A stretch of DNA of 64,000 bases. Origin: Stegostoma tigrinum. Its lineage: Eukaryota. The notes beneath the pieces are model-generated. The model was not told the DNA's origin, did no database searches, and worked only from the letters and a program-made list of their open reading frames with translations. This document shows positions 1 to 60,765 of the stretch, piece by piece (the first letter of the stretch is position 1; each line of letters begins with the position of its first letter). The position numbers were made by a program, and so were the translations under genes. The stretch lies in the NCBI RefSeq assembly GCF_030684315.1, contig NC_081364.1, positions 56,276,588 through 56,340,587 on the forward strand, read 5' to 3'.

Positions 1-1520
1 TTCATGCTGGAGTTCCTTGCATACCCTTTGTAGCAAAATTCATTGGTCAGAAAGGATTCTTAGCAAGTTCCAAATGCAGTGTTCAGCAATTGCTACAAAA
101 CGAAAGATAAAAAGTGGAACAAAATTGGCATTTTTAAAAACTGAAACATCAGCCATGGAAGCCTGGCCTATATCATATAGAATTGCTAAAAAAAGTAACC
201 TGCCCATCTGCTCTATCGAGTTAGTATATCCTGAAACACACTGCAGTGCCATAATTGAACATTCTGCTCAGGCATCTAATGCAACTGCCTAAACAAAGTC
301 TGTTTTCACATCTCTAAACATCTTTTCCTTCTATAAAATGTCACCATAAATAAATACAGCGAAATATATTCAGCTTATCTACTTAGCCGCAGCAGGTCAT
401 AATTAACTTTGTATTTTGAAATTTGGTTCACATAGACAGACATATGCACAACAGGATAGCAGCTGATATATTGAAAGATTATAGTTGCCTGAAAAATTGT
501 CTCCATAAATTAGAACATTATATAACAGGATTTAGTACCTACATTTCAATTATCTCCTTGATCTAGACATAAAATATGTATCAACACCAAAATCTGCTGA
601 AATTGTATACTTTCTGATCAAAGAAAACTAATAGAATAAAATAACCTGCTAAGCTTGATTAAGCGACCATGTATGCAGTTAATGCTAAAAACAAAAACAA
701 TAAATAAATAAATAAATGTCTGCCTCTGGTGAAGAATCTAATCATTATGCTGTTCTGGACCCGAGAGCAAATCATTCCATTCCGTTCACCTCCGGAATTA
801 CAAAGAATGGTGCTGAGTAATTTCATCTCCATTTAATTTATTAACACTCACAGTTTACCAAGTATGACTGCAGCGTTCCTTCATTGTGTTAAATTCATGC
901 AAACTCTTAAATATTGGAGAAAAAGAGAGTGTTTTCTTCAGTTTTGACTGATGGTATGCGATTTACAAACTTCCCTCGCAAGATTTTCTTGGCTTTTGGA
1001 ATCCATGGAGGATCCAAAAGGGAGGAAAAATGAAATTACCAGGTCAAACTGCCTGCTTGTGAGTGGTGTTCAACTTGTGGGAGTTTCTGCTTCCTGGTTT
1101 TTATACAGGGCTAATAACCCAGAGGCCATGATCAATAGATAAGCAGGTAAGAGTTCAAATCCCACCACAGCAGCTGGGGAATTTATATTCACACAGTTAA
1201 ATCAATCTAGAATAAAATGCAAGCATTAGTAATGATGATTCTGAGATTAAATATACACATTGATCTGTTCTCTAAAATGCACTTCAGAGAAGGAAATCTA
1301 CCAATCTTATCCATTCTGGCCTACAGCAAAGTAGTTGACTCTCCTTCTGAAATAATTTTGAGTATTCACTTGCAAAGCCAAGAGAATTAAGGACCTGGCA
1401 TCAACCGAAGCACCAGACAAGACAGAATAAAGCCTAAACCTAGTCTACCTATAAAGTCTCTGCATGTAAGTGAGGAGGACAACTGACTGAATTGGCTGTG
1501 CCATGCACTAATCAAGCCAG

Positions 1521-1714
1521 TGATAATGGGAACTGCAGATGCTGGAGAATCCAAGATAACAAAAAGTGTGAAGCTGGATGAACACAGCAGGCCAAGCAGC
1601 ATCTCAGGAGCACAAAAGCTGACATCAGATGAAGGGTCTAGGCCTGAAATGTCAGCTTTTGTGCTCCTGAGATGCTGCTTGGCCTGCTGTGTTCATCCAG
1701 CTTCACTTTGTTAT
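1521..1714. mobile_element. Penelope pseudo-LTR-derived fold-back mini-insertion (family A)
   Basis: About 70-bp inverted arms around a decayed hammerhead-like spacer. Direct repeat CACTAATCAAGCCAG at 1506-1520 and 1715-1729. Sequence matches the 3' end of the Penelope copy at 33090-33178. Confidence 0.9.
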
Positions 1715-1891
1715 CACTAATCAAGCCAGGCCTAGTTTACTCACAAAATGATATCAAAAAGCCCAGGGTCCCTTCATCAACATCCTTGGGTATGTCCTGT
1801 CCCACTAACAGGTGGTATTAGTCACGAGAGCACTGTCCCTAGAGTCATGGTGGATTCAATCCCCACCTGTCTCATGGTGTCAAATCAAACA

Positions 1892-2110
1892 AGATCAGAA
1901 ATCACATGACGCCAGGTTACAGGTCTATTTGAAAAACACAAACTCTTGGAGTCTTGGTCCTTCTTCAGGTGTTAGTCACCCAATGTCTAACACCTGAAGG
2001 ACTGAGGCTCGGAAGGCTTGGTGTTTTTCAACTAAACCTGTTGGACTGTAACCTGGGTGTCAAGTGATTTCTGACCTCGCCCACCCCAGTCCAACACTAG
2101 CACCTCCACA
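1892..2110. mobile_element. Fold-back mini-insertion of a second Penelope-like family (family B)
   Basis: Inverted arms: CAGAAATCAC...GTGATTTCTG outside and CTTCAGGTGTTAG/CTAACACCTGAAG at the centre. Extra tail on the right arm. Imperfect TSD TCAAATCAAACA 1880-1891 / TCAAGTCAAACA 2111-2122. Confidence 0.7.
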
Positions 2111-2249
2111 TCAAGTCAAACATGGGCAAAGAAACCTGCTGCCAATTACCGCTCTCCCATAGCTGATCGATCAGTACTCCATGTTACACACTGTTTGGAA
2201 GAAGTGCTGAGGGTAAAAGTGTACAGAATGGACTGTTACTTAAAATTAA

Positions 2250-4835: not shown

Positions 4836-5420
4836 CAATGCTGGTGAGGCCACACCTGGAGCACCATGTACGGTTTTGGCCTCCTTACTTGAGAGAGGAT
4901 GTGTTGACACTGGAGGGAGTGCACAGGAGATTCACTAGGTTGATTTTGCGAATTAAGAGGGCTGGCTTATGAGGAGAGATTGCATGAACTGTGACTATAC
5001 TCATTGGAATTTAGAAGAATTAAGCGAGGGTAGTCTTACAGAAATGTATAAAATTATGAAGGGACTAGATAAGATAGAAGCAGGGAGGTTGTTTCCACTG
5101 GTGGGTGAAACTGGAACTGAGGGGACATAACCTCTAAATAAAAAGGGGAATAGGTTTCGGACCAAGTTGAGGAGGAACTTCTTCATGTGAATCTGTGGAA
5201 TTCCCTGTCGAGTGAAGCTGTTGAGGAGGCCTTTTTGAATGTACTTAAGGCAAAGATAGATACATTATTGAACTGTAAAGGAATTAAGGGCTATGGTGAG
5301 CAGGGGTGGAAGGTAGGGGTGCAAAAGGATCTGAGTCCACAAAAAGATCAACCATGTTCTTATTAAATTGCAGAGCAGGCTCGATGGGCCAGATGGTCTA
5401 CTCCTGCTCCTGTTTCTTAT
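4836..5420 (+). mobile_element. CR1 (HER1-like) LINE 3' fragment
   Basis: LVRPHLE...LEGVHRRFTRL...YSLEFRR RT C-terminus, and 3'UTR ending CTACTCCTGCTCCTGTTTCTTAT. Paralogous to 56233-57186. Confidence 0.9.
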
Positions 5421-14611: not shown

Positions 14612-14826
14612 ATTTGAAGATTGCCAAACAGAAAATTATTTTGTTTACCCATTTTCTTGTCAACCATATTTCTAAAAAAAGTGTTCTGAACTGCAAAATC
14701 TGAAAAACACTGGCTGACACAACCCCAAACCTGTTTCCTTAACTATTCATCACTTGTTAGGCTACATGGACTTTTCTTGGAAGGAACTTATGTAAAACCG
14801 TGAAACACATCAAAATGTCTAGCCTA

Positions 14827-15152
14827 GATAATAAAATGTGAGGCTGGATGAACACAGCAGGCCAAGCAGCATCTCAGGAGCACAAAAGCTGACGTTTCGG
14901 GCCTAGACCCTTCATCAGAGAGGGGGATGGAGGGAGGGAACTGGAATAAATAGGGAGAGAGGGGGAGGCGTACCGAAGATGGAGAGTAAAGAAGATAGGT
15001 GGAGAGGGTGTAGGTGGGGAGGTAGGGAGGGGATAGGTCAGTCCAGGGAAGACGGACAGGTCAAGGAGGTGGGATGAGGTTAGTAGGTAGCTGGGGGTGC
15101 GGCTTGGGGTGGGAGGAAGGGATGGGTGAGAGGAAGAACCGGTTAGGGAGGC
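14827..15152 (-). mobile_element. 5'-truncated Penelope (family A) 3'UTR/pseudo-LTR insertion
   Basis: Near-identical to the reverse complement of about 32845-33178. Exact 12-bp TSD ATGTCTAGCCTA at 14815-14826 and 15153-15164. CpGs retained, so probably young. Confidence 0.95.
14889..14920 (-). ncRNA. Minimal type I hammerhead ribozyme motif in the Penelope pseudo-LTR
   Basis: Minus strand reads CT CTGATGA A GGGT CTAG GCCC GAAA CG TC AG: intact CUGAUGA and GAAA core, stem II GGGU/GCCC, palindromic loop-less helix III (ACGU), and a GUC cleavage triplet. Confidence 0.7.
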
Positions 15153-15689
15153 ATGTCTAGCCTACTTTGGTCTTACAGGAAGATTACAAAGAAAACACAG
15201 GCTTTCACCCCCACATGCTTCATCACTGTATGGTATTTGTTTTCAGAAGGGAACAATTGCTCCTAAACTATTGAAATGGAGATTTATTCTAAGAATGCAT
15301 GAACACACCAGCAAATCCAATTTTTCTGCGACTTCTAACATTTGAAGAAATTAAAGCATTCTTTAGCTCTCTAGAAGGCATTTCAGAACAAAATTAAATC
15401 TTTGTGTTAATATCTGTTTGCTATTGGATTTTTGTTGGAAATTGAAGGAACGAGTGGAATGCTGAAGAGACTAAACAGGCAGGGCGATGATGGAGTGAAC
15501 GAATAATCTCAGTTCCAGTATTTTTGTTCTCAACAACTTTTAATTTTGCATTGACCCAAGTTTTCACACCTCACTCTGATCCCATACCTCTGCTTCATTG
15601 TTATCTCAGTTTGAGATTTACCTTCTCTGCTTTGGAGATGTTCAAAATTATTGGAGATTTTAATACCGAATATCTGGCAGAGGGAGCTG

Positions 15690-19470: not shown

Positions 19471-19551
19471 CATCAACATTTCTGTTAGGGCAGAGTGCAT
19501 TTTTAAAAAGCTTACTTCTGAACTTAACAATCCTGCCAATCAAAGCACTAA

Positions 19552-19674
19552 GATAACGAAATGTGAGGCTGGATGAACACAGCAGGCCCAGCAGCTGCTG
19601 GGCCTGCTGTATTCATCTAGCCTCACATTTCGTTACCTTGGATCCTCCAGCATCTGCGGTTCCCATTATCACTG
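19552..19674. mobile_element. Penelope family A fold-back mini-insertion with a zero-spacer palindrome
   Basis: About 43-bp arms meeting at CAGCAG|CTGCTG, tail TTGGATCCTCCAGCATCTGCGGTTCCCATTATCACTG. Exact 14-bp TSD AATCAAAGCACTAA at 19538-19551 and 19675-19688. Confidence 0.92.
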
Positions 19675-21250
19675 AATCAAAGCACTAACTTGGAATCAAC
19701 AACAATTAAAGTCACAACTCTGGAATAATGGCAAGATCACCATTGCAGCGAGGCTAGGTTTCAACATCTCTAGCAGAACGGTCATATCTCCCGCAGTGTA
19801 TTGACTTAGGAGTGTAATTTTTAATCAATTAACAATTAATTACATCTGTGATTATGAAGTAAAGGGTGATTACTTGATAAAATAATTGCTGCTGGAGGCA
19901 GTGTTTTTTAACTCTCTAATCATGTATTCATGTGACATTGGTGCAACTGAGAATTGCGATGTGTTTCATCTGTTTTAAGTGGAATAGTAAAGTATCCCCT
20001 TAATGGAAAGGAACACCAGAATTCTGTTCACCTAATCACAGGGTCAATACAGTTCACACAGATAGACTGCAGAACAGTGACTTTGAGACCTCGAGAAGCC
20101 TGTAAAACATTAGGCATTTAGAAAATCCAATAAAATGTGCTTATTACAATATGCATTTGCTGAGAGAGAAACACAACATTAAAAAAAATTCTTTTCTGTC
20201 TCCCTTCAGGAGTGAACTTTCTAGTCTTTGGATCAAATTCTTGTTCTTTCTTTTAAATTAGCCTGTTTAATAGCCTTTTCATCACAATTACATCCTCATC
20301 AAATTAGCCGAATTAGAGTCTCTGTATTCAAAAACAACTAACTATCAGTGTGTTTCACCAGGGTTAAGAGAACTGTGTATTTTTTAACCTAATCAAGGAG
20401 GTGTTGGTGTTCTGGATTTCACCAGTGTGCGTAAGAATATGTAACTTGAATGCTGTAAAATCTCACCTGTATAAGGCAAGGGTTTATTTTATCCACTTAT
20501 ATAATGTTACCTGTTTGGGAAGATTGTATAATCACACAGTGGAGAAGAGAATCTTTGCCCCTTCAAGTCTATACAGCCAAAGATTACTGATTTTACAATG
20601 GTCCCACATTTCAGCATTAGGTCTTCAGTGTTATGATACTTCGAGTACTCATCTAAGTGCTTTTTTTAAAAAAAAGGTTGTGAGGTGATTTGCCCCAACT
20701 ACCCTCCGAAGACAGAGACACCACTGCCTGGGTGAAAAAGACTTAAAAGATATAGTGAACATTGTATTCCCTTTAAATGACTGTCCCCGTTTTGAGGATA
20801 TAGGAATTCAATTATTTAATGATGGAACTTCAGATTTAATATTGAGAAATCTGCCTATACTACCCTCATGTTTCTGCTTTATCTATTTGATAATTGTGGA
20901 AATGAATGAAACATATTAAAATTCATGGCTTCTAAATATTTATGAGGGACTAAACAATCCGCATCCAGTTGTTCTGCTGTTTTCAGTTTCCCATATGCCG
21001 TTCTTGTTTTACGTTTTATTGCTTAATAATAATGTAAATAAGTCTCATAAAGGATATTTAGAATAGTTCATAATGTCTGCCTGTCCTTTTTATTAAATTG
21101 TGTTATCTGCTTTATGGGTGTGAAAAATGTCATGAATGAATTTATGGAGGAATGCTATTTGTATGGTTTGATGGATAATGAAGGATGAAGCTTGAGGTAT
21201 GATCATTTCTGTAAATTTTCATCCAACTAAACAGAGGTTTAGTTCAGTTT

Positions 21251-21427
21251 CAAAACACGGGAAATTGCTGGAGAATCTCAATGGTTCTGATGGTGTATGT
21301 GGAGAGAAAGCAGGGATAACATTTCAGATCCAGTGACCTATCTTCAGCACATTCTGGACCTGCTGAGTTTCTCCAGCTATTGCTTGTTTTTCTTTCAGAT
21401 TTCCAAATCCACTGTTCTTTAGCTTTT
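21251..21427. mobile_element. Old Penelope-like family C fold-back insertion with a hammerhead-like motif
   Basis: Arms ATTGCTGGAGAATCTCA / TGAGTTTCTCCAGCTAT. Minus strand CTGAAGA T AGGTC ACTG GATCT GAAA TGTT. Direct repeat GTTCAGTTT at 21242-21250 and 21428-21436. Confidence 0.65.
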
Positions 21428-21759
21428 GTTCAGTTTGTTTGCTGCTGTATGTGAATGGGTAAGACAAAACGAGAATGTCACTCTGCAGGCCTGTAATTGA
21501 ATGGCAAGCAGTTGTCTCAAAATTACACGAGCCATTTCAGTTTTGCCAGATTTCTTCATTTGTTTATCCCCTGACCCAATTAACTATTTGGCTCTGAGTG
21601 TAAACAGCCTGACTGTGGGGCTTTACCTTGAAGTCTGATGCAGATGTTCTTCAATGTCCCTCCATTTCCATCTGTTCAGAAGTAATAAGATGCCAACAAT
21701 AAGTAATAAATTGATTTTGCTTTTAGAAGAAGTCTTATTTAGGTAACATCCGCAGTTCA

Positions 21760-23852: not shown

Positions 23853-24178
23853 ACCATAGTGACTCACAGTGCCAGGGACCTGGGTTCGATTCCACCCTCA
23901 CGTGACTGTCTGCATTGGGTTTGCACATTAGCCCCATGGTTTCCTCAGGGTGCTCCAATTTCCTCCCACAGATGTGCATATTAGGTGGATTGGGCCATGG
24001 GCAATTGCCCATTAGTGTGCAGGGATATGCAGGCTAGGTGTGTCTACCATGAGAATTGCAGAATTACAGGGATAGTGTTTGGGGGTGTGGGGATGGGTCT
24101 CCGTGGGATACTGTTTGGGTGGTCAGTGTGGACCTGATGGGCCAGATGGCTTGCTTCAACACTGTAGGGATTCTATGT
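23853..24178 (+). mobile_element. HE1/V-SINE-type tRNA-derived SINE
   Basis: CACAGTGCCAGGGACCTGGGTTCGATTCC (B box), central TTCCTCCCACAG...GTGCA..TTAGGTGGATTGG, and tail CACTGTAGGGATTCTATG. Confidence 0.85.
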
Positions 24179-25268: not shown

Positions 25269-28200
25269 TAGTTAATTTGCATTTGGTAGGTGCGTTTCCA
25301 ATTTTGACATTCACTCCCATAATATTGAGTACTCTTGGGCGTGGGTGAGAGGTCATAAAATCATAGAAGCCCTATCCCTATGACCAAAAAATCTGATTTC
25401 CTGCTTAAGGTTTCAACAACAAGATGAGATTCTCATTAGTGAGTGGAGAAGGGTCTACTTGTATGCTTTAATAACTCATTGTTACCTGATCGCGCCTCAT
25501 TTACATGCAATGAAATGTCCCCAGACAGCAGAGAGAAACTAGATAAAACCGGTTCCCGACACGAAGGTCAGAGCATGTACCTGCAGCTTGCTGGTGTCTT
25601 CTCCAGCCATCAATCTTGGCCAGGAATCTCCAACAGCACAGGACATACCCTGTATCCAATGGCCATCTGCATATTCTGTCAATAGAGGTTGGCATCAGAG
25701 CAGCAGCAGCCTCCCTCCATCATCATGGCGCATTTGGACTCACTCATAAATCGGTTCTGGGCTTGAGTGCTACACTTTGGCTTCACCAGCAATTCATATT
25801 GCCATGTTGCTGCCAGACTGCTTTATATGCAGGACAGGCATCCATCTCATGCATTGGTAAAAGATGCCTCCTGGGGCTATTGGCATGTTTTCTTAGCATT
25901 TACTTTGATTGCACCTACTTGAATGCACGCAACATCACTGCCTTGCCTTATCTTTTTTGCACTCTATTGCTTCATTCAGAACTTACAAGCTTATTTATAG
26001 TTCCGTTTTGCTTTGCCTTTTGATGCAGACAGAATGCCAGGCAGCTCGTACCAGCCTCACTGCCTCTTTATGGCACACTTCCAATCCACTTGCAATATGT
26101 TTCTGAACTTCCATCTTGCACTTTGTAGCACACCAGTATCTTTTGTTGCAATGCTGTTGACGGGACTCTTCACACATGTGAAACTACAGTGAGGTTAGGC
26201 CTGTACATTGATACTAAAACAAGGGTGTGGAACAGGCCTGGTAGCCTACAAAAACAAAGCTGGTTTAAAAACCCGTTTTTAACATTTTGTTTCAACGACT
26301 GTTTCCATAATCCTTTTGTCTAGACATACATGATGCAGCTAACAATAGATCAGAACCATTTTAGATCATTTCAAGTGCATGATTTACCTTCTCAACCACA
26401 CTGAGATCATACTCATCATGATTATTCTATTGCTTGACATGTTATTAAAATAGCGCTTTCATCAAAAGAACTTTCTTTTCCCACGTAAGTTGAATTATTT
26501 CTGGGGCATTCCCATATAATGTTTTCAGAATTAATAAAGGGATGGGATAAAGTTCAGTGAAATGTTTGTTCTATCAGCGTTGAACATAATTAATGTATGA
26601 TTACATAAAGAATACAAAGGCTAAAAGAGTGTGAAGTCTCCTGTCCACAGATATTGTTGGTGGTGTGGTTGGCTCGGGCAAAATAATGGATAAAAGATCA
26701 GTTCAGCTAATCTTTGTTATGACCTAATCGCACCTCATTTTTGTGCCTCTTGAGCTGTTTCCAGACAGTGGAGAGATACTAAATGGTACCAGTTCCCGAC
26801 ATGAATTGTGGTTGAGCTGACTTGTGTTCGGCAATGTTAGAGAAACTGGAGGAGACAGAGTCAAACGCCATGACTGTTTTATCCTCCAGTCCCAAAGGTA
26901 CCATACTGCAGGCTATAATGACTACAACAAGTGCCCCATAGCAAGCCAGACCAAAGGTTCTTCACAAGCATTTTCATATTCTCTGATCCAGCTAGACTTT
27001 GTTTTCGGCTGAGCCCCCACTTGAGTGGTGGGGAAGGGTTGGGGGTCGCAGGGTGGGGTAGTGGAAAAAGCCCGCTGATAACATACTTAGTTGTCATGCC
27101 ACTCTAGCCAACTTCATACATGACTAAGCTGAAATATCATGCTATTTCAGATAGATATTTTACTCAACTGCTCACAAATGAAAGAACACACCCAGCCCTG
27201 CCAGAAACATTGGCCATAGTGGAAAGACAAAGGACACCGGATGATGGGTTTTGATAGGCAGAAACATTAGACTTCAGGAACATCTGAAATGTTGAACCAA
27301 GCTAGCAGCACGCCTTCGGAATAACAAACTAGGTAAGTAACTCTCTATGTAGGTCATAACCCACAAATCAGTAATTTTCACCACCGTGTCCAATGGGTGT
27401 ATTCCTGCAATTTGTGATGGAATGTCCGGGCAACCTGAAAAAAAAAATCCTGCGGCATAAACTTCAAATTACCTTTGAGGTATATGGTTGCTGATGAATG
27501 GATGGTGACTTTTTGTTGACAGCCTGGGAATTTGATTAAAATGTTTCAATGTTTTAGATGAGGACTTATCTTTTGATGGCTTTCTTAAGTTGACATAATG
27601 GGTAATACTTTGGGCAGAATGAAAAATTACTAAGTGCAAACTTAATTTAATTGAGGATTTTCGTGGAGTTTTTCACTGCTTTGTTTTGCTGTTTGAAAAA
27701 CATTTTCAAGAAGGAAACTTGGGAGCCCTTTCGGCTACACGTCCATTTTGCTAATGGCAAAAGTATCAATTAGAGACCTGATTGGAACAATTGGAAATAT
27801 GGTTGGCTTATTTTTGCAAGTACATCTCCAAGGTAAACTCTTTCCTTACTATCAGTTCATTTCTACTCACCCTTTGTGGGCTATGACAGCAGGGATACAA
27901 CTCAGGCATTCAGTGTATCACCTGAATATTGCTGCTCATTCATCAGCTTGTCAGATGACAAAATTACAAGCCTCATCTGACAAAAGGAAACTGCCGCAAA
28001 TACATCACACTGTGGATTGATTTCTTTTGCGGTATTGCTTCTATTCCTCCTCTTCAAAGTGCAAGCATTTCTTGTTTGGATTGAAACTCATTTGCATGAC
28101 TGATAATCATTTTGGATGACAGTTTCATCGTTTTTTACACTTCTATACTTGGACAACTCCGACTTTTTGAGATCTGCAGGCACTTAATTTACATTAAGAG

Positions 28201-29107
28201 CTGTTAACTCTGATTTCTCTCCACAGACACTGCCAGAACTCCTGAGCTCTTCCTGCAATTGTATTTTTGAGCTTAATTTACGTGTCTCATGCTCCCGCAG
28301 TTTCCAGAGTGCCTGGCTGATAATGATGGTGCATGCATCATGGATCATGCTTAATCAAATCACAAGTTGTTTAGATCTCTAAACCTATTAGATCTAGTCA
28401 CAGATCCTACTGATCATTTCCACAAGGTTACCACATGGATTTTGAATGCTTGGGTATCTTGACTGTGAAGTAACAGGAAGTAATCAAAGGGAATTGCAAT
28501 GTTAAAACAAGATAATTGAAAGCTTTTGAAGACAAATATTCGCTGTTTCTGACATCTTATAAACTTGTTTCAAATTACACCTTTTAATATCAAGCAATGT
28601 TATTGATCATTTTTAGTGCATTTGAATGAAAAATGATGACAACATTTTATGGTATGGGAGGTTTTTTGGAGCATTTGTAAACATTTCCCAATTTGCTAGA
28701 CTAAGGGAACAGAGAATTCCTTGTGCCACTGTACAGACTGGGAACTGGAAATACTGGGTGGTAAATAAGCAGCATAATAGTCAATATTGCTGTTAAACTT
28801 TGCCTTACTGTTCAATATGCTGTCCTTTAAATAAATGTTAAGTTTATCATATCTTGCTCTGTGTTAACTGCTAGTGTAATAAAGTTTTCTACCCATCTGT
28901 ATGTAAAGAAGTTTTCCTGACAGGAGCTAACCAGATATTTTGCTCCCAATTCAGCTCAGTAATGTGTATCTACTCAAGTGGAGATAGTTATCCAACACGG
29001 ACTTTCACACAACTCATAAAAAATGTAAGTAGCTATTAAGTTCTATGCAATAAACCCATTCAAGATTGTTAATCTGCCTTCTTCCAAAGGTATCTGGTGG
29101 AGATCCA

Positions 29108-29126: not shown

Positions 29127-30065
29127 AACTAAACCAATGTCAAGAAAAGGATTGGTGACTGTAAATATATCCAAGATATTTCACTTGATTCGAGTAGATG
29201 TAATGACAACAGATTTAATGCACATTAAGCCAATATCCGAACATATGTCATGCTGAGAGCGGTGTGGATTTTGCCAAACATGTAACATATCAGATTGTAT
29301 GTTATTTTTATTTTATTACTATGTAAATAGGGGCAATATCAGCATTTTCTTCCTAAAATATAATCCTGCAGTTTATATATAATAAATTGCGTGCTGAATT
29401 TGTTCCAGTACCAAAATAAATTATTTTGAGTTATTAGCAAAGACCACAGGAAATCTTATATTGTCACCTGGTGATCATCTGGTAGCATTTTGTATGTCAT
29501 CTCTGGTCAAAGAGCAGGGCCTTTAAAGTTCAGCATGAGCCAAACTCGTGCAAGCAACAATTATTGTTTGGCTGGATTGATCATCACATCAGAGGTTACA
29601 GATTTTCCCTTTTAACAGTAATCTGCAGTCTCTGCTATCGAGCCCTGATTACCCAGGTTATGTTTAAAGTGAAGCTGATCAAGACAGGACTAACTGAATT
29701 CTAGGGGGACTGCCGTGATGTTCCTCTCACCTTCATATTCAAATAAGCATATTTTTTTGAATAGATGTTCTTTTTGATTGTGGCTTGTAACTACTGCAAG
29801 CCATTGGTTAATTTGGAAGAGGGCACTGCATGATCTGCATAGAGGACCATCTAATTTGGAATCCCCAACATGGGATTCAAACAGACATGTCTCAGATGTA
29901 AGATTTGGTTGCCTTTTCTTATGTTGTTAATGCCCATATGGTGGGTCATGCACTTCCAGTTGGTGATGAATGTTTGCTTTCTTTCTGATTAACACAACAC
30001 AACCTGTATGACATTAAAGTACTTATGAACCAAAATATGACACCAACTCTCAAAGGGCTTGGTAT

Positions 30066-30336
30066 TAGATTTCCTACAGTGTGGAAACAGGCCCTTCGGC
30101 TCAACAAGTCCATACCACCCCTTGGAGCATCCCACCCAGACCCATCCCCCATAACCCACACACCTCCTGAACGGGCAATTTAGCACCCAGCCTGCACATT
30201 TTTGGACTGTGGGAGGAGACCCACACAGACACGGGGAGAATGTGCAAACTCCGCACAGACAGTGGCCCAAGGCTGGAATCAGACCCGGGTCCCTGGTGCT
30301 GTGAGGCTGCAGTGCTAACCACTGAGCCACCGTGCC
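30066..30336 (-). mobile_element. HE1/V-SINE-type tRNA-derived SINE
   Basis: Minus strand GGCACGGTGGCTCAGTGGTTAGCACTGCAGCCTCACAGCACCAGGGACCCGGG (A box, B-box region), and tail CACACTGTAGGAAATCTAAT. Confidence 0.92.
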
Positions 30337-31879
30337 ATCACTTCGCTTGGGTCACTTCATCAAAAGCTTTGTACAAGAAGTAAGTTTTAAAGTGTGATTT
30401 AAATGAGAGTAGAATTAGAAAGTAGGGAATGTGGGGAGGAAAGTCAAGCGCTTGGGACTGTGCCTATTAAAAGTGCCTGTAAATGGGTTCAGTGCACAAC
30501 ATTACTAAACCGTGGAATTCAATTTAATAGACCAATACAATAGATAATGTGCCTTTTGCTTAAAAAAAGACAATTATGCGACACTTCACTCATTCTAACT
30601 TATACATGGAAAAAATGGATTTATGGATTGTGTGCTATCAGCACCTGCTACTAAAGAAGAAGGAAAACATTTTAAATGGGAAATCTGATACAGGATCTTA
30701 TTTTAAAAAATTGCAGTTATGAAGCAGGCAATGGAATCGCTGTAAGTGCAGTCAGGCTAGGAGGAGAGCAGAATATTTCTTGTCTGAAGCCAGTTGGCAC
30801 ACAATCTCCCACTGCTGCCAGCAAAGCTAATTTTACTCAAGATGGAACAGGAAATATAACACAGTAATGATGTGAGACTATAAAATATCAATTGCATGAA
30901 GATACTTGAGGCTTGATTACTGGGACCAGTTTAACACCTGGACATACTGTATCCTTTCCCAATGTTGATAATACTCCAGTAATGTTCTTCCTTCAGCACT
31001 TCATTAATGTTTAGTAACGGAAAGAGTGCATGTAAAAAACCAGGTAATTAACTTGTAACAACATGCTCGCAGTGATTGTACATTCTTTGATTCAATGTCA
31101 ATGATGGGTAGTCTAATGATGCCACTATTCAATACTACCCAGCGAAAATAAGGGTTACGTTCAATCAGTGCTGAACTGTGAAGCAAGTTACTAAAGCTAT
31201 CATTGCAGCTCACCTATTGTCTATTATAGTAAATCAACAAATATAGAAATCTATTGCAAAGCAGGAATTCAAAGGGTCTAATGGGATTCTTTCATGACAA
31301 TCTCGGTTTGAAAATCTATGCTTCAAGTATTTACGTACTTAGTTAAAGCATCTGTATTTTCTTCACCGAATTTGGCCCTTAACACCGCTTGCAGTTAGGC
31401 TATGGGTGTTGAGGCCATGCTGGGAGACCTGTCTTGGGTTGAGTCCATATAGCACTCACTTGCTTGTTTAGTTTTTGTCAGCCTTCCTAACATGAAGTGT
31501 ATGGTCCATATCAGTGCCTCATCAATTGATGACTAGGTCTGGCATGCAGAGGCTATGAAGTTGAAAAATCTGAAAATGCAGCATATTAGTTCTGGATTGG
31601 GAGTGCTAGGAAATTTATGTAAAATAATCTTTGGGTAGATTGTTAATCTTTTGTCAATCTGGGATACAAAACCAGACTGAAGCAAGCACAGGATTGAATG
31701 ATGAAGGCTCAATCAGAAATTTCAACTTCATCTTCTTCTCAAAACTCGCTTTCGACTTAATTGTCAATGTTTTCCAAATCCAAACAAAGAATGAACGAAA
31801 TAACATTGAGCCTATTAGCAGAAAAAGACTGATTTTGGATTATGTCTCAGTGTAACTGACAGTTTAAAAATAACCTGAG

Positions 31880-34030
31880 CTTATCATAGAAAGTGGGACC
31901 AAGAATAGGACATTTGGCCCTTCAAGCCTGCTCCACTGTTCAATGTGATCCTGGCTAATCCTCTGTCTCAGTACGATGACCTGCTTTCTACCCATACACT
32001 TGATGCCTTTAAAATCTTAAAATAAAGCTATTGCCCCCCACAGTGGTCGAGAACGCCCTTGACCGCATCTCCCACATTTCCTGCAACACATCCCTCACAC
32101 CCCGCCCCCGCCACAAATGCCCAAAGAGGATCCCCCTCGTTCTCACACACCACCCCACCAACCTCCGGATACAACGCATCATCCTCCGACACTTCCGCCA
32201 TCTACAATCCGACCCCACCACCCAAGACATTTTTCCATCCCCACCCCTGTCTGCTTTCCAGAGAGACCACTCTTTCCGTGACTCCCTTGTTCGCTCCACA
32301 CTGCCCTCCAACCCCACCTCACCCGGCACCTTCCCCTGCAACCGCAGGAAATGCTACACTTGCCTCCTCCCTCACCCCTATCCCAGACCCCAAGATGACA
32401 TTCCACATTAAGCAGAGGTTCACCTGCACATCTACAATGTGTTATACTGCATCCACTGTACCCGGTGTGGCTTCCTCTACTTTGGGGAAACGGCTTGGGG
32501 ACTGCTTTGCAGAACACCTCCGCTCGGTTCGCAATAAACAACTGCACCTCCCAGTCGCAAACCATTTCCACTCCCCCTCCCATTCTTTAGATGACATGTC
32601 CATCATGGGCCTCCTGCAGTGCCACAATGATGCCACCCGAAGGTTGCAGGAACAGCAACTCATATTCCGCTTGGGAGCCCTGCAGCCCAATGGTATCAAT
32701 GTGGACTTCACCAGCTTCAAAATCTCCCCTTCCCGCACCGCATCCCTAAACCAGCCCAGTTTGTCCCCTCACCCCACTGCACCACACAACCAGCCCAGCT
32801 CTTCCCCTCCACCCACTGCATCCCAAAACCAGTCCAACCTGTCTCCGCCTCGCTAACCTGTTCTTCCTCTCACCCATCCCTTTCTCCCACCCCAAGCCGC
32901 ACCTCCATCTCCTACCTACCAACCTCATCCCACGTCCTTGACCTGTCCGGCTTCCCTGGACTGACCTATCCCCTCCCTACCTCCCCACCTATACTCTCCT
33001 CTCCACCTATCTTCTTTTCTCTCCATCTTCGGTCCGCCTCCACCTCTCTCCCTATTTGTTCCAGAACCCTCACCCCATCCCCCTCTCTGATGAAGGGTCT
33101 AGGCCCAAAACGTTAGCTTTTGTGCTCCTGAGATGCTGCTGGGCCTGCTGTGTTCATCCAGCCTCACATTTTATTATCTCTGTCTCTTGAATATGTTCAG
33201 TAACTCAGCCTCCTTTGCATTCTGCGGTAGAGAATTCCACAGGTTCAGTGCCCTTCCAGTGAAGACATTATTTTTTCATCTCGATCCCAGATGGTCTATC
33301 CCAAATCCTGAGACTGTGGCTCCTGGTTCTAGAAGCCTCAACCCCAACCCCCGACCTCACACATTCCAACTACCAATAAAGGCAAACATTTAGTCTATCC
33401 GGAATTGTATACATTTTAATGAGCTGCCCTCTCATTCTTCTAAACTCCAGTGAATACAAGTCTAATTGAACCAAGCTCTCTTTAAAGGACAATTTTGCCA
33501 ATCCCACTGTTAGCCTAGTTAACCTCTGCTGCACTCCCTCTATTGGCAAGTACATCCTTTCTTAGGTATGGAGACCAAAATTTCACTCAGCCCTCCAAGT
33601 ATGGTCCTTCCAAAGTCCTGTATAACTTTAGTAAGACATCGCTACTTCTGAACACAAATCCTCTTGCAATGAAACCCAATATATCATTTGTCTTCCTCAT
33701 TCCTTGCTGCACCTGCTTGTTTGTTTTCCTTTATTAGTATACAAGGACACCCAGATTCCTTTGTATTTCCACATTTCTCAAAATATCAACATTTAAATAA
33801 TGCACTTGTTTTGTGTTTCTCACACCAAAGTACACAACTTTATATTTAACAATGTACTGCATCAATCATGTGTTTGCTCACTCACTCAACTTATCTAAAT
33901 CACCTTGAAGCCTCCTTAAATCTTCCTCACAATTCACATTCTGCAAAGTTTTGTCGTCTCAGCAAACTGGGAAATGTTGCATTTTGGTTCACTTAACCAG
34001 GTCATTTATAAATGTTGTGAAAGCTGGGGA
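31880..34030 (-). mobile_element. CR1 3' fragment split by a Penelope insertion (CR1 parts about 31880-32030 and 33179-34030)
   Basis: Minus ORF 33370-33555 contains IEGVQQRLTRL...LYSLEFRRMRGQLI. The 3'UTR continues on the far side of the Penelope copy. Confidence 0.85.
32031..33178 (+). mobile_element. 5'-truncated Penelope-like retroelement (Neptune-type): RT C-terminus, Cys linker, GIY-YIG endonuclease (frameshifted), 3'UTR/pseudo-LTR
   Basis: KRIPLVLTHHP...FPSPPLSAFQRDHSFRDSLVRS, Cys linker CNRRKCYTC, RLGDCFAEHLRSV...VANHF...RRLQEQQLIFRLGALQPNGIN. About 39-bp tandem units at 32749-32850. Decayed hammerhead at 33085-33116. Confidence 0.92.
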
Positions 34031-37539: not shown

Positions 37540-38030
37540 ACATAGGAGTTGAGACATTATATTCATGTTCTGTAGGATGTCAGTGAGGCCTCTTCTAGCG
37601 TGCTGTGTCTGGTTCTGGACACCCTGTTATAGGAAGGATATTAACAAGCTGGAGACGGCTCAGAAGAGATTTACCAGGATGTTGCGGGTTATGGAGGGTT
37701 TGAGTTATAAGGAAAGGCAAGACAGTCTGGGACTTCTTTCACTGGAGCATAGGCGTGGGGGATTTCAAGAATAGAGGACATATTTTTAAGATGAGAAGAG
37801 AAAGATTTTAAAAAAGACATGAGAGGCAATTCTTTTTACATAGTGGTTCATGTGTGGATTGAACTTCCATTGGAAGTGGTATATGCAGATACAGTTACAA
37901 CATTTAAGACATTTAGATAAGTGCACAAATAAAAAAAAAGTTTGGAGCAATATGGGACAAACACAGAAAGGTTGGCTTAATTTAGTTAAAGATTATGATC
38001 GGCATGGACTGGTCAGACTGTACGACCCTA
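37540..38030 (+). mobile_element. CR1 3' fragment
   Basis: ORF 37565-37774 contains VRPLLACCVWFWTPCYRKDINKLETAQKRFTRML. Confidence 0.88.
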
Positions 38031-40445: not shown

Positions 40446-40586
40446 NNNNNNNNNNNNNNNNNNNNNNNNNNNNNNNNNNNNNNNNNNNNNNNNNNNNNNN
40501 NNNNNNNNNNNNNNNNNNNNNNNNNNNNNNNNNNNNNNNNNNNNNNNNNNNNNNNNNNNNNNNNNNNNNNNNNNNNNNNNNNNNNN
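40446..40586. other. Assembly gap (141 N)
   Basis: Run of n characters. Confidence 1.
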
Positions 40587-40619: not shown

Positions 40620-40805
40620 CACCACCAGGAAGTGCTACACTTGCCCCCACACCACCTCCCTCACCCCCATCCCAGGCCCCAAGATGACTTTCCATGTTAA
40701 GCAGATGTTCACCTGCACATCTGCCAATGTAGTATACTGTATCTACTGTAACCAGTGTGGCTTCCTCTACATTGGAGAAACCAAGCAAAGGATCAAGACT
40801 GCTCA
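40620..40805 (+). mobile_element. Penelope GIY-YIG endonuclease fragment
   Basis: RKCYTCPHTTSLTPIPGPKMTFHVKQMFTCTSANVVYCIYCNQCGFLYIGETKQR, with an intact VVY...YIGET signature. Paralogous to about 32345-32500. Confidence 0.9.
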
Positions 40806-43164: not shown

Positions 43165-43394
43165 CCTGTCTGTCCCCTCTCACCCTATCTTCTCCTTTAT
43201 CCATCTTCTATCTGCATCCCCCTGTCTCCCTATTTATTTCAGAACCCCCTTCCCCTCCCTCATTTCTGAAGAAGGGTCTAGGCACTAAACATCAGTCTTC
43301 CTGCTCCTCTGATGCTGCTTGGCCTGCTGTGTTCATCCAGCTCCACACTGTGTTATCTCAGATTCTCCAGCATCGGCAGCTCCTGCTATCACTG
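43165..43394 (+). mobile_element. Penelope 3'UTR/pseudo-LTR fragment including the tail
   Basis: CTGAAGAAGGGTCTAGGC...CTGCTCCTCTGATGCTGCTTGGCCTGCTGTGTTCATCCAG...TTATCTCAGATTCTCCAGCATC...TATCACTG. Confidence 0.88.
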
Positions 43395-44012
43395 TAACCA
43401 CAAATACACTTTGTTTTATCCATATGCTGCATAAGTACATAACTCATGCTTCAGCTCACTAATTGCTTAATCCTTAGCAAACTTCCCCACTTAAAATACT
43501 CAAACTGATCCCAATCGCTAAAAATGGAGGCAGGATAATATGAATTTGTGAAATGGGAGCACTCGCTAATGATATCCATCTTTCATACTGAAGGTTTATA
43601 CCTTTACAGATCTCTTCAACAATCCCAATATGCTGCTCCACACAAACACTGTTTTTGTTTTTAAATGTCCCACTGATTTCTTTCAAATTGTTTGTTTGGA
43701 TTTTTACCTCAATTTTTCTGCACTTACTTTGTGCAGTAGCAATATCTGCAAAATCTCCAATGGATTAGTTAATGCTTGAATCTATGTTTTTTGTCAGGGT
43801 GTGCTTTGTGAAGTGCTTTTTTTCCCGTCATATTTCAAAATCATTTTGCATATTGCTGAAAATAATTTTCCATGTTCAGCAATGTGGCCATGACTATAGA
43901 AAGAAATGTCTTTCAGTGATATCCCCAGAGAAACAGAAAATAATGAGATTCACGCTTTTCAATTGGCTCAAAACTTCCACAAAGTAATAATAAAGGTCAT
44001 TTACTTCACTGT

Positions 44013-44157
44013 GATAACAAAGTGCGGAGCTGGGTGAACACAGCAGGCCAAGCAGCATCTTAGGTGTACTCCTCTGATGCTGCTTGGCCTGCTGTGTTCA
44101 TCCAGCTCCATACTTTTTTATCTCGGATTCTCCAGCATCTGCAGTTCCCATTATCTC
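44013..44157. mobile_element. Penelope family A fold-back mini-insertion
   Basis: About 50-bp inverted arms plus tail. TSD TCATTTACTTCAC(T/C)GT at 43997-44012 and 44158-44173. Confidence 0.9.
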
Positions 44158-44338
44158 TCATTTACTTCACCGTAATTGTCAGCCATGCATCTTGCTCAAC
44201 TGAAAGTTCTAGTTCAAACAAGACGTACAATCATTAGATTATTGGATTGTTTTCTTGCTTAATGAAGACATCTTTCTCTTAGTTGATAAATAAGTAATCA
44301 AATAAATAAGCATGATCGGACATGAACCCTCTTCAGAA

Positions 44339-44620
44339 GGGTAACATGGTGGTTCAGTTGTTAGCACAGCTGCTTCACAGTGCCAGAGGCCTAGGTTTGA
44401 TTCTGCCCTTGGATGACCGTCTATGTGGAGTTTGAAAGTTCTCCCTATGACTGCTTAAGTTTCCTCTGGTTTCCTATCACAGCCCAAAGAGGTTTAGGCC
44501 AGGTGGATCAGCCATGGGAAATGCAGGGTTGCAGCAATGATTTGGTTGGGGCCCTCTTTGGAGGGACAGTTTGGACTCAATGTGCCAATTTGCCTGCTTC
44601 CACACTATAGGGAATCAATG
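44339..44620 (+). mobile_element. HE1/V-SINE-type SINE
   Basis: GGTGGTTCAGTTGTTAGCACAGCTGCTTCACAGTGCCAGAGG head, and tail CACACTATAGGGAATCAATG. Confidence 0.8.
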
Positions 44621-44704: not shown

Positions 44705-45592
44705 ACGCATTAGTGAAAAAGGTTTTCTTGGATTATTGAGGAATCTTGATGAAATGGGTCAATGGACTGAAAAATGGCAGATGGGGTTCCATCTGGATAA
44801 ATGCAAGGTACTGCATTTTGGTACAATAAACAAGGGTAGCACTTACACAATTAATGATAGGGCTTGGAGTAATGTTGTAGATCAGAGGGACTTAGGAACT
44901 CAGGTACATAATTCTTTGAAGCTTGTGTCAGTTATAGACAGAACGGTTAAAAAGGCATTTGGTACACCTTGCCTTCATTGCTCAGTCCTTTGACTATCAG
45001 AGTTGGCAAGCCATGTTGAGGTTACATAGGACGTTGGTGAGGTATCTTCTAGAGTACTGTGTCCAGTTCTGGTCACCCAGTTATACGATGGATATTATCA
45101 AGCTGGAGAGGGTTTAGAACAGATTCAACAGGATGTTGCTGGGTATGGAAAGTTTGAAATATTAAGAAAGGCTGGATAGGCTGGAACTTTTTCCACAGGA
45201 GCATAGGAGGTTGAGATGCAACCTGACTGAAGTTTATAAAATAATGAAGGGTATAGATAGAGTTAATGGTAGGTATATTTTCCCTGGGATGGGGAATTTC
45301 AAGATTAGGGGGCACATTGCTGAGGTGAGAGGAGAGTGATTTTAAAAATGATTTAAAGGGCAAATTTTTTTACACAGAGGGTGGTTTGCATGTGGAGTGA
45401 ACTTTCAGCACAATTTGTAGATGCAGGTACAATTACAATCTTCAAGAAACATTTGGATAAGTACATGAATAGGAAAGATTTGGAGGGATATGGGCCAGGA
45501 ACAGGCAGGTGGGATGAATTAAGTTTCGGGTTATGGTAGGTATGCACTGGTGAGATTGAAGGGTCTGTTTCCATGTTGTATAACTCTATACT
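44705..45592 (+). mobile_element. CR1 (HER1-like) RT C-terminus and 3'UTR
   Basis: WTEKWQMGFHLDKCKVLHFG...QRDLGTQVHNSLK. 3' end TCCATGTTGTATAACTCTATACTCT. Confidence 0.92.
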
Positions 45593-46099: not shown

Positions 46100-46255
46100 C
46101 CAAAAGAAGGAACCGTGGAAGCTGGAAATCTGAAATGAAAACAGAAATTGCTAAAGAATAACTCTGAAGAAGCTTGCTGAACTTGAGACTCTAACTGTTT
46201 TCTCTCCATAGATGTTGCCAGACCTGTTGGGTTACTCCAGCAATTTCTGTTTCTC
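46100..46255. mobile_element. Old Penelope-like family C fold-back
   Basis: AAACAGAAATTGCT / AGCAATTTCTGTTT inverted arms around a decayed CTGAAGAAG hammerhead core. Confidence 0.6.
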
Positions 46256-56232: not shown

Positions 56233-57186
56233 TTAAGAACTAAGAGCAGGAGTAGGCCATCACCGCCATTTAATAAGATCATGGCTGATCTTTTTGAGAC
56301 TCAGCTGCACTTACTCGCCCGCTCACCATAACCCTTAATTCCTTTACTGTTCAAAAATTTATCTAACCTTGCCTTAAAAACATTCAGCGAGGTAGCTTCA
56401 ACCACTTCATTGGGCAGGGAATTCCACAGATTCACAACGCTTTGAATGAAGAAGTTCCTTCTGGCTTCTGTCCTACATCTGCTTCCCTTTATTTTGAGGC
56501 GATGCCCTCTAGTCCTGGTTTCACCTGCTAGCAGAAACAACCTCCCTGCCTCTACCTTACCTATTCCCTTCACAATGGTATACGTTTCTATAAGATCTCC
56601 CCTCATTCTTCTGAATTCCAATGAGTATAATCCCAGTCTACTCAGTCTCTCCTCACAATCCAACCCTCTCAACTCTGGAATCAACCGAGTGAATCTCCTC
56701 TGCACCCCTTCCAGCGCTGGTATATCTCTTCTCAAGTAAGGAGACCAAAACTGCACACAGTACCCCAGGTGTGGCCTCACCAGGACGCTATACAACTGCA
56801 GCATAGCCTCCCTGCTTTTTAAACTCCATCCCTCTAGCAATGACAGACAATATTCCATTTGCCTTTTTAATTACCTGCTGCACCTACAATCCTACTTATA
56901 GCAATTCATGCACAAGGACACCCAAGTCCCTCTGCACAGCAGCGTGCTGCAATTTTTTCTACCATTTAAAACATAGTCCATTTTGCTGTTATTCCTACCA
57001 AAATGGATGACCTCACACTTATCAACATTGTACTCCATTTGCCAGATCTTTGTCCACTCACTTAGACTAACTATATCCCTCTGCAGACTTGCAGTGTCTT
57101 CTGCACACTTTGCTCTACCACTCACCTTAGTGTCATCTGCAAATTTTGACACACTACACTTAGTCCCTAATTCCAAATCATCTATG
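56233..57186 (-). mobile_element. Relatively young 5'-truncated CR1 LINE (RT catalytic region to 3' tail)
   Basis: ORFs 56892-57176 (SKFADDTKV...WQMEYNVDKCEVIHFG) and 56301-56858 (LYSVLVRPHLGYCVQFWSPYLRRDI...TRGHRLKI...VVNLWNSLP), separated by frameshifts. Confidence 0.95.
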
Positions 57187-60451: not shown

Positions 60452-60765
60452 GGGTGGCATGGTGGCTCACAGTACAACGGGCTGGGGTGCAATCCCAGCC
60501 TTGGGCGACTGTGTGTGTGGAGTTTGCATATTCTCTCTGTGTCTGTGTGGGTTTCTTCCAGGTCCTCCAGTTTCCTCCCACAGCCCAAAGATGTGCAGGT
60601 TAGGTAGATTGACCTTCCTAAGTTTCCTCATATTGTGCAGGCTAGGTGGATTTGCTCTGGGAAATATAGGGTGGGGGATGAGGCTCAGGGTGAGATAATC
60701 TTTGGATATTCAGTGTGCATTTGATGGGCTGAATGGCTTGGTTCCACACTGTAGGGATCCTACGA
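60452..60765 (+). mobile_element. HE1/V-SINE-type SINE
   Basis: GGGTGGCATGGTGGCTCA head, CGACTGTGTGTGTGGAGTTTGCATATTCTC, CCCAAAGATGTGCAGGTTAGGT, and tail CCACACTGTAGGGATCC. Confidence 0.88.

Follow-up and report, generated by a model that had tools for sequence, protein, structure and literature searches.

Inverted layouts in Penelope-like elements and comparable systems

Insertions of Penelope-like elements (PLEs) typically hold an inverted, 5'-truncated copy, carry a 30-40 bp tail at one end and have complex junctions, as described in passages of PMC8557442, PMC8969392, PMC3846280 and PMC2377424. The origin of the tandem and inverted PLE structures is stated to be undefined in the relevant part of PMC8557442. 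The protein of the anole Poseidon element PAc, a predicted dimer, nicks and extends both strands in vitro and begins reverse transcription at two adjacent internal sites, between which the tail lies (PMC11167929); this work, on the only in vitro system, stops before second-strand synthesis and joining, and the parts of the report covered here contain no inverted-arm model. For L1, twin priming is described in sections of 10.1101/2024.08.27.596794 as the priming of both nicks on one RNA, followed by joining through microcomplementarity, where read-through past the internal primer gives an inverted internal duplication inside one target site duplication (TSD). Further, retrozymes are hammerhead-bearing, non-autonomous PLE relatives that are short, ORF-less and high-copy, and that occur as monomers or direct tandem repeats (10.64898/2026.07.22.740005, in the portion covered).

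The window analyzed here, a 64-kb stretch of Stegostoma tigrinum DNA, contains six short hairpin-shaped inserts (fold-backs E1 to E6), each composed of two inverted PLE-type ends and belonging to one of three families, A, B and C. The fold-backs are the smallest form of the known PLE insertion layout. They share the head-to-head inverted truncated copy and the 30-40 bp tail at one end only with endonuclease-bearing PLE insertion units, as these appear in passages of PMC8557442, PMC3846280 (e.g., Pen2a_Av) and PMC2377424. In the rotifer cases covered, TSDs are also variable (8-10 bp, compared with 9-16 bp here) and palindromes are found at the inverted junction. Unlike the published units, the arms of the fold-backs are shorter than approximately 130 nt, they contain no ORF and they make up six of the 15 PLE-end insertions in 64 kb, whereas the published passages deal with ORF-bearing or cargo-bearing units and solo pLTRs, with no ORF-less two-armed inserts among them. 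Neither an ORF-less two-armed PLE class nor shark PLE hairpins were reported in the literature searched, the scope of which lay outside Repbase, Dfam and the subscription reviews of 2005 and 2006. The initial annotation had presented the inserts as a separate, poorly described class of mini-retroelements; this was overstated: 5'-truncated insertions form a continuum with the present inserts at its short end, and the layout is already found in parts of PMC8557442 and PMC3846280. Other dispersed repeats in the window, LINE-like or SINE-like by appearance, lie at 4866, 24748, 37546-37907, 45000-45445 and 56301-56870, and at 23938-24175, 29989-30351, 44462-44618 and 60550-60762.

Anatomy and source of the fold-back inserts

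All six inverted inserts named in the initial annotation are present with the anatomy described there (Table 1). Five of them (E1-E5) are flanked by TSDs of 9-16 bp with scores of 10-15, and the lengths first proposed were borne out against a null set in which a score of 9 was reached by none of 1500 random 120-220 bp windows given the same search freedom; for E6, where no clear TSD had been claimed, our TSD search also found none. As also claimed, one arm ends at an internal site and the other carries an extra tail in each of the six fold-backs. The tail lies on the left in two of them and on the right in four. In family A, the tail measures approximately 34-37 nt; it is present in E1, E3, E5 and the copy at 43173-43394, and absent in the copies at 14827-15152 and 32016-33179. 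The E1 arms are 100% complementary over 58 nt and flank a 23-nt spacer.

Folding of the complete inserts gave z-scores of -14.4 (E1), -9.9 (E2), -13.0 (E3) and -15.3 (E5) against 40 shuffles each, while the decayed E4 and E6 folded no better than their 40 shuffles (z of -1.2 and +0.9, respectively). When single arms were folded alone, none had a significant structure (z between -0.96 and 0.57). For E4 and E6, the evidence of inversion comes from opposite-strand profile matches and from alignment, with one E6 arm at E=0.87.

Table 1. Coordinates of the fold-back inserts and of related single-arm copies and fragments in the window.
Feature	Position	Strand	Description
E1 TSD, left copy	1506..1520	+	15 bp, perfect; present once at the empty orthologous site of organism B
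E1 tailed arm, family A PLE 3' end	1521..1625	-	tail ~1521-1554; internal end site 1555
E1 untailed arm	1626..1714	+	starts with mutated minimal hammerhead core (1626-1653); ends at internal end site
E1 TSD, right copy	1715..1729	+	15 bp, perfect
E2 fold-back, family B	1880..2122	.	untailed arm 1892-1982 (-), tailed arm ~1982-2110 (+); TSD 1880-1891/2111-2122, 12 bp, 1 mismatch
E3 fold-back, family A, zero spacer	19538..19688	.	untailed arm 19552-19595 (-), tailed arm 19594-19674 (+); TSD 19538-19551/19675-19688, 14 bp, perfect
E4 fold-back, family C	21242..21436	.	untailed arm 21251-21347 (-), up to hammerhead core, tailed arm ~21349-21427 (+); TSD 21242-21250/21428-21436, 9 bp, perfect; extended, 13 bp with 1 mismatch
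E5 fold-back, family A	43997..44173	.	untailed arm 44013-44067 (-), tailed arm 44068-44157 (+); TSD 43997-44012/44158-44173, 16 bp, 1 mismatch
E6 fold-back, family C, decayed	46100..46255	.	tailed arm ~46100-46162 (-), untailed arm ~46161-46255 (+)
Single-arm 5'-truncated family A copy	14815..15164 (insert 14827-15152)	-	untailed end; 12-bp TSD; intact hammerhead core
Single-arm family C insert, 79 bp	28183..28281	+	10-bp TSD; wider search, 1/200 null windows as good
5'-truncated, frameshifted family A element	32016..33179	+	CX4CXXC linker, GIY-YIG endonuclease, 3' UTR, hammerhead core, untailed end; no TSD found
Endonuclease fragment, family A PLE	40627..40794	+	82-86% identity to P0001/P0002; beside assembly gap
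Single-arm family A copy with tail	43173..43394	+	no TSD found

Profiles built from the window copies detected 15 PLE-end insertions, namely the six fold-backs and nine single-arm copies that the initial annotation had omitted. Single-arm copies end at either site, tailed or untailed. TSDs were found in two of the nine (10 bp around the 79 bp insert and 12 bp around an insert of 326 bp), and the search at the other seven gave none. Since the same ends occur as nine single-arm copies, the fold-backs represent the short end of ordinary 5'-truncated insertion.

Family A ends lie physically on an RT/GIY-YIG ORF, which supports their Penelope-like origin. Relatives of the ORF fragment at 32016-33179 are annotated proteins from zebra shark (87% identity) and whale shark (82%); these proteins, P0001 and P0002, match the window at 32016-33128, from the linker onward to the 3' end. 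Pfam searches with P0002 returned RVT_1 below cut-off and GIY-YIG above it, both at E 9e-05, while the broken PLE frames of the window itself gave no Pfam match and the window copy is without the RT core. The CX4CXXC linker is found in the frame at 32013-32411 and in P0002, in line with the CX2-5CxxC pattern common to Neptune and Nematis, and the family A ORF fragment has two cysteines between the GIY and YIG equivalents. Family A thus shares the linker, the cysteines and, in its relatives, RT plus GIY-YIG with Neptune/Nematis-type PLEs (CX2-5CxxC linker and CCHH GIY-YIG, in the relevant part of PMC8557442), although the linker is common to both groups and the TSD-bearing sites here hold no microsatellite targets. 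Family A, the main family, is the 3' end of a PLE bearing RT and GIY-YIG endonuclease, with a Neptune-type linker. The further PLE traits of family A, in addition to RT with C-terminal GIY-YIG, are the hammerhead motif, the optional tail, 5' truncation, inverted copies and variable TSDs; a direct pseudo-LTR partial tandem was not found in the window. The 3' UTR of the family A element contains three 39-nt C-rich tandem units (32725-32841), and a 141-N assembly gap (40446-40586) lies just ahead of the endonuclease fragment.

The Penelope origin put forward earlier therefore stands for family A, with its attached ORF, and is a matter of resemblance for families B and C, for which no linked RT-endonuclease ORF was found within the window. 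Family C cross-matches the family A profiles (E down to 1e-6) and carries a hammerhead core; family B shows the layout and a decayed core-like motif only. From these likenesses, we infer that both families are PLE-derived. The family motif of the initial annotation gave nothing in viral or metagenome contigs; in the contig search, the family C motif was likewise found in no viral contig and gave one chance match (L001) in an apparent bacterial coding sequence.

The minimal hammerhead core lies approximately 85-90 nt before the internal end, a position like that in metazoan PLEs (PMC4209133, in the passage concerned). A core with a 5-bp stem II is present at 14918(-), with variants at 33087, 57985 and 21347(-), and the E1 copy is mutated. 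The ribozyme is a prediction, and Rfam gave no match at the gathering score in the window. At 22-26 nt upstream of the core, a pyrimidine-rich run ending in CAG resembles a splice acceptor (14938-14960(-), 33040-33065 and 43220-43243); in D. virilis, the intron end coincides with helix I of the ribozyme, according to the part of PMC4209133 covered.

Empty site and inner junctions

Contigs from four public runs (of 19 listed) were compared over window positions 1150-2240. In two runs of organism B, a related species, originating from two studies, the E1 site is empty: contigs of approximately 92-93% identity and single-copy depth join 1198-1505 or 1162-1505 directly to 1715-1906. They are without exactly 209 nt, which corresponds to the 194-nt insert plus one 15-nt TSD copy. 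E1 is present in both organism A runs, in the pieces listed. The check at the related species' orthologous site, suggested in the initial annotation, thus revealed a single TSD copy in both studies, and shows directly that E1 is a genuine insertion with a genuine TSD. In such a dense family (15 PLE-end insertions in 64 kb), a hairpin might also result from two separate insertion events, or from neighboring inverted copies that recombined or underwent deletion after integration, but a single TSD encloses both arms in five of the six fold-backs and the E1 empty site is without flank loss, which largely refutes this reading for E1 and leaves it highly improbable overall.

The empty-site contigs of organism B extend 15 nt into E2, and a further contig spans 25 nt of the E2 tail together with the right flank. 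This reach of 15-25 nt, although below the 31-nt bridging rule, makes it probable that organism B also carries E2 and that this insert predates the divergence of the two species. The sequence around E1 and E2 (~1400-2240) resembles a decayed LINE endonuclease region, which would provide an internal empty-site test for E2; two protein searches with this region gave no LINE endonuclease match. Together with one TSD copy, E2 measures 231 nt, a length that keeps the flanking reading in frame. Alignments of other genomic copies extend 3 nt into the TSD where the tails of E1 and E2 end (1518-1520 and 2111-2113); these two cases suggest a short primer-template match. The PAc report, in the parts covered, describes no primer-template homology (PMC11167929), in contrast with this 3-nt match to the target.

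With regard to the inner junctions, the family A fold-backs E1, E3 and E5 have three distinct turn points and different subfamily states. The contigs of the four runs contain at least 843 joints on the 1150-2240 stretch, none of them dominant, and the 12 skip joints among the 15 joints listed of these fall at 12 different places. This multitude of inner junctions without a dominant one supports the original view that the junctions differ and that the fold-backs are not one amplified MITE. A MITE family shows a single structure, with repeats at its termini and TSDs of constant length. Fold-backs are also short, ORF-less and high-copy, but their repeats are non-terminal on the tailed side and their TSDs vary. 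A MITE was ruled out by the differing junctions, the TSDs of 9-16 bp and the one-sided tail outside the repeat. A non-LTR retrozyme was likewise rejected: retrozymes and fold-backs share small size, lack of ORFs and high copy number, but the fold-backs are inverted pairs, and E3 and E5 are without the hammerhead core.

The deepest junctions reach a depth of approximately 1200-2270 (some, 300 upward) vs. 9-19 in the unique flanks, that is, about 100-fold single-copy depth for some, where the summed arm depth runs to millions and depth is not equal to copy number. Some junctions recur and some are common to both species, and repeated formation, re-amplification or later deletion could each account for the recurring ones. 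Some hairpins may have been re-amplified. These depths and shared junctions would be expected if a few hairpin masters had formed once and been re-mobilized as non-autonomous, MITE-like or retrozyme-like units, their centers varied by later deletions; a short unit of this kind would also begin at the hammerhead core, as all five family C arms that reach the core do. Nevertheless, the three junctions and different subfamily states in three family A copies, the absence of a dominant joint among at least 843, TSDs of 9-16 bp, inverted repeats that are non-terminal on the tailed side and a tail on the left in some copies and on the right in others make such masters very unlikely as the general source.

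Microhomology of at least 1 nt was found at nine of the 12 best-supported skip joints (eight by the tool's own column) and of at least 2 nt at five of the 12, compared with 36% and 15.5% expected over all possible pairs. The excess is modest, and the test is soft, the 12 joints being a selected set, the best supported of at least 843, with inserted letters in three. Ten of the 12 best-supported joints are near-symmetric, within 16 nt; symmetry was dropped as evidence on grounds of ascertainment, since 42-67% of detectable pairs qualify anyway. On opposite strands, joints 1519/1522>1563 and 1522>1628 connect the tail end to the untailed end or the core start in 24-63 organism A contigs each; these could be tail-to-tail joins, partial tandems or neighboring insertions on one contig.

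The 5' ends of the arms were also compared. The five family C arms that begin at the core share, pairwise, 9-14 of 30 upstream bases; three of the four family A arms at the core continue upstream (22-25 of 30 shared). Contig loose ends accumulate before 1628 (822 and 876 records) and before 1631 (75 and 113), with a consensus extending approximately 8 nt upstream only, its agreement being low (0.41-0.48) and unitigs favoring flank-bearing ends. There are hints here of a preferred 5' boundary at the ribozyme edge, perhaps an RNA start or a short source RNA. Arm starts within a few nt of the 5' edge of the core are seen at 21347(-), 46163, 57985, 50100 and 17236(-), along with the loose ends at 1628/1631; they comprise family C arms and many copies of family A, and the sequences preceding them have nothing in common.

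The ribozyme cut site, placed according to the published hammerhead layout, does not coincide with any of the six junctions in the window. Joint 1616>1654 (1616-1620/1654-1658), among the best supported, is a symmetric turn with a 4-nt palindrome starting at the predicted cut site; ribozyme cleavage and microhomology are confounded at this joint.

Proposed priming at two fixed sites and its alternatives

The reading that we favor, with a probability of roughly 0.55, is that fold-backs arise by twin priming, with two fixed start sites on a single RNA. Nicks in the two target strands, set 9-16 nt apart by the element protein, would provide two free ends for priming on the element RNA, one at the tail end and the other at an internal site approximately 35-40 nt upstream. 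Chance complementarity of 1-4 nt between the growing ends would then link the two short cDNAs, and the TSD would be left once repair had closed the gaps. With both primers on the same RNA, only one tail would be copied, as in L1 twin priming with internal duplication, except that the start points would be fixed; where a single nick was used, a single-arm copy would result. Fold-backs are very short PLE-end insertions and were likely dead on arrival. In L1, as described in the sections of 10.1101/2024.08.27.596794 covered, internal priming takes place at random sites and the duplicated segment usually accounts for little of the insert, whereas in fold-backs the site is fixed and the duplication comprises almost the whole insert. 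PAc resembles the fold-backs in its two start sites bounding the tail and in the hammerhead upstream, although it belongs to a different clade (PMC11167929, in the parts covered).

The RNA-3' ends of both arms face outward, against the TSD copies, and this polarity fits two primed nicks with 3' overhangs. Under independent end choice for each arm, the six mixed pairs out of six would have a probability of at most 0.016, and no tailed/tailed or untailed/untailed pair was found among the 15 PLE-end insertions of the window. The untailed arm reaches further in by 21-23 nt in E1, approximately 45-55 nt in E4 and approximately 60-70 nt in E6; reach is even in E3 and E5, and the tailed arm of E2 goes approximately 5 nt further in. 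If a single RNA served both fixed start sites, a fold-back should have only one tail, its two arms should stem from the same template, and the untailed arm should reach at least as far in as the tailed one. The mixed pairs, together with the longer untailed arm in the three clearly uneven cases, thus favor twin priming at two fixed sites, on an end-to-end reading of six elements, as the contigs are too short for genome-wide pairing of arm ends. A tail at one end only would also be expected from endonuclease trimming, the view taken in part of PMC8557442, and a later loss of 20 nt from a perfect palindrome could explain the unevenness of E1 as well.

Such trimming belongs to an alternative in which one primed cDNA folds on a tiny palindrome and copies itself, after which its second end is trimmed by the endonuclease at the internal site and joined to the other nick. 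E3 and E5 turn without a spacer, E3 at a self-complementary dinucleotide, and the arms of E1 and of E3 are near-identical within each element, as self-copying would have it. Self-priming at palindromic junctions and endonuclease resolution of the tail have been proposed in parts of PMC3846280 and PMC8557442, respectively, and small-hairpin self-priming yields inverted duplications at L1 sites (10.1101/2024.12.14.628481). This process predicts, however, that the loop lies on the tailed, primed arm, while it is the untailed arm that reaches further in E1, E4 and E6. Further, single-arm copies ending at either site fit two start sites, and two start sites were measured in vitro (PMC11167929, in the parts covered), so we regard self-copying as improbable.

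The number of templates was addressed through the subfamily states of the arms. These are shared within E1 (0 substitutions and 1 gap in the core) and within E3. The E5 arms (44060-44075) differ at a dinucleotide that separates subfamilies, one being nearer the 14827/33179 type and the other matching the 43394 type exactly; this difference speaks for two templates. If each dimer subunit held its own RNA, with the asymmetry of the dimer setting tail vs. internal start before the cDNAs were joined, this difference would be explained with the same polarity and TSD logic as on one RNA; the model in the initial annotation can also be read in this way. On the other hand, the E1 arms are identical over 58 nt, the E3 arms share states absent from the other window copies, an extra rule would be required for the mixed ends in all six, and the E5 difference lies approximately 7 nt from the junction of an old copy with four other arm differences. 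Two separate RNAs therefore seem rather unlikely to us.

Regarding the earlier proposal that both target nicks prime reverse transcription and that the cDNAs join by microhomology, the polarity, the fixed outer ends and the modest microhomology excess are in agreement with it, while priming itself, its restriction to one RNA and the microhomology-mediated joining are steps that we infer. More tentatively, and with the odds against it, programmed twin priming may be the normal mode of PLE integration, in which a dimer would place the two target ends at fixed sites of a single RNA. The ORF-less inserts would then be short run-off copies ending near the 5' edge of the ribozyme, comparable to strong-stop DNA, and not random truncations. 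If this were true, the tail, the inverted pseudo-LTR and the TSD would all arise from one step.

The fold-backs are whole integration products of 120-220 bp, present at about one per 10 kb in the window and readable end to end with both target ends. They would allow counts of arm-end pairing, arm reach and template mixing, by which twin priming and snap-back could be told apart. What is new here is the empty site, the junction diversity and the arm bias, which make the integration step testable. In genome annotation, fold-backs could be mistaken for MITEs. Heavy editing can occur in palindromic repeats, as reported in part of PMC5625713, and fold-backs, where transcribed, would be ready-made double-stranded RNA.
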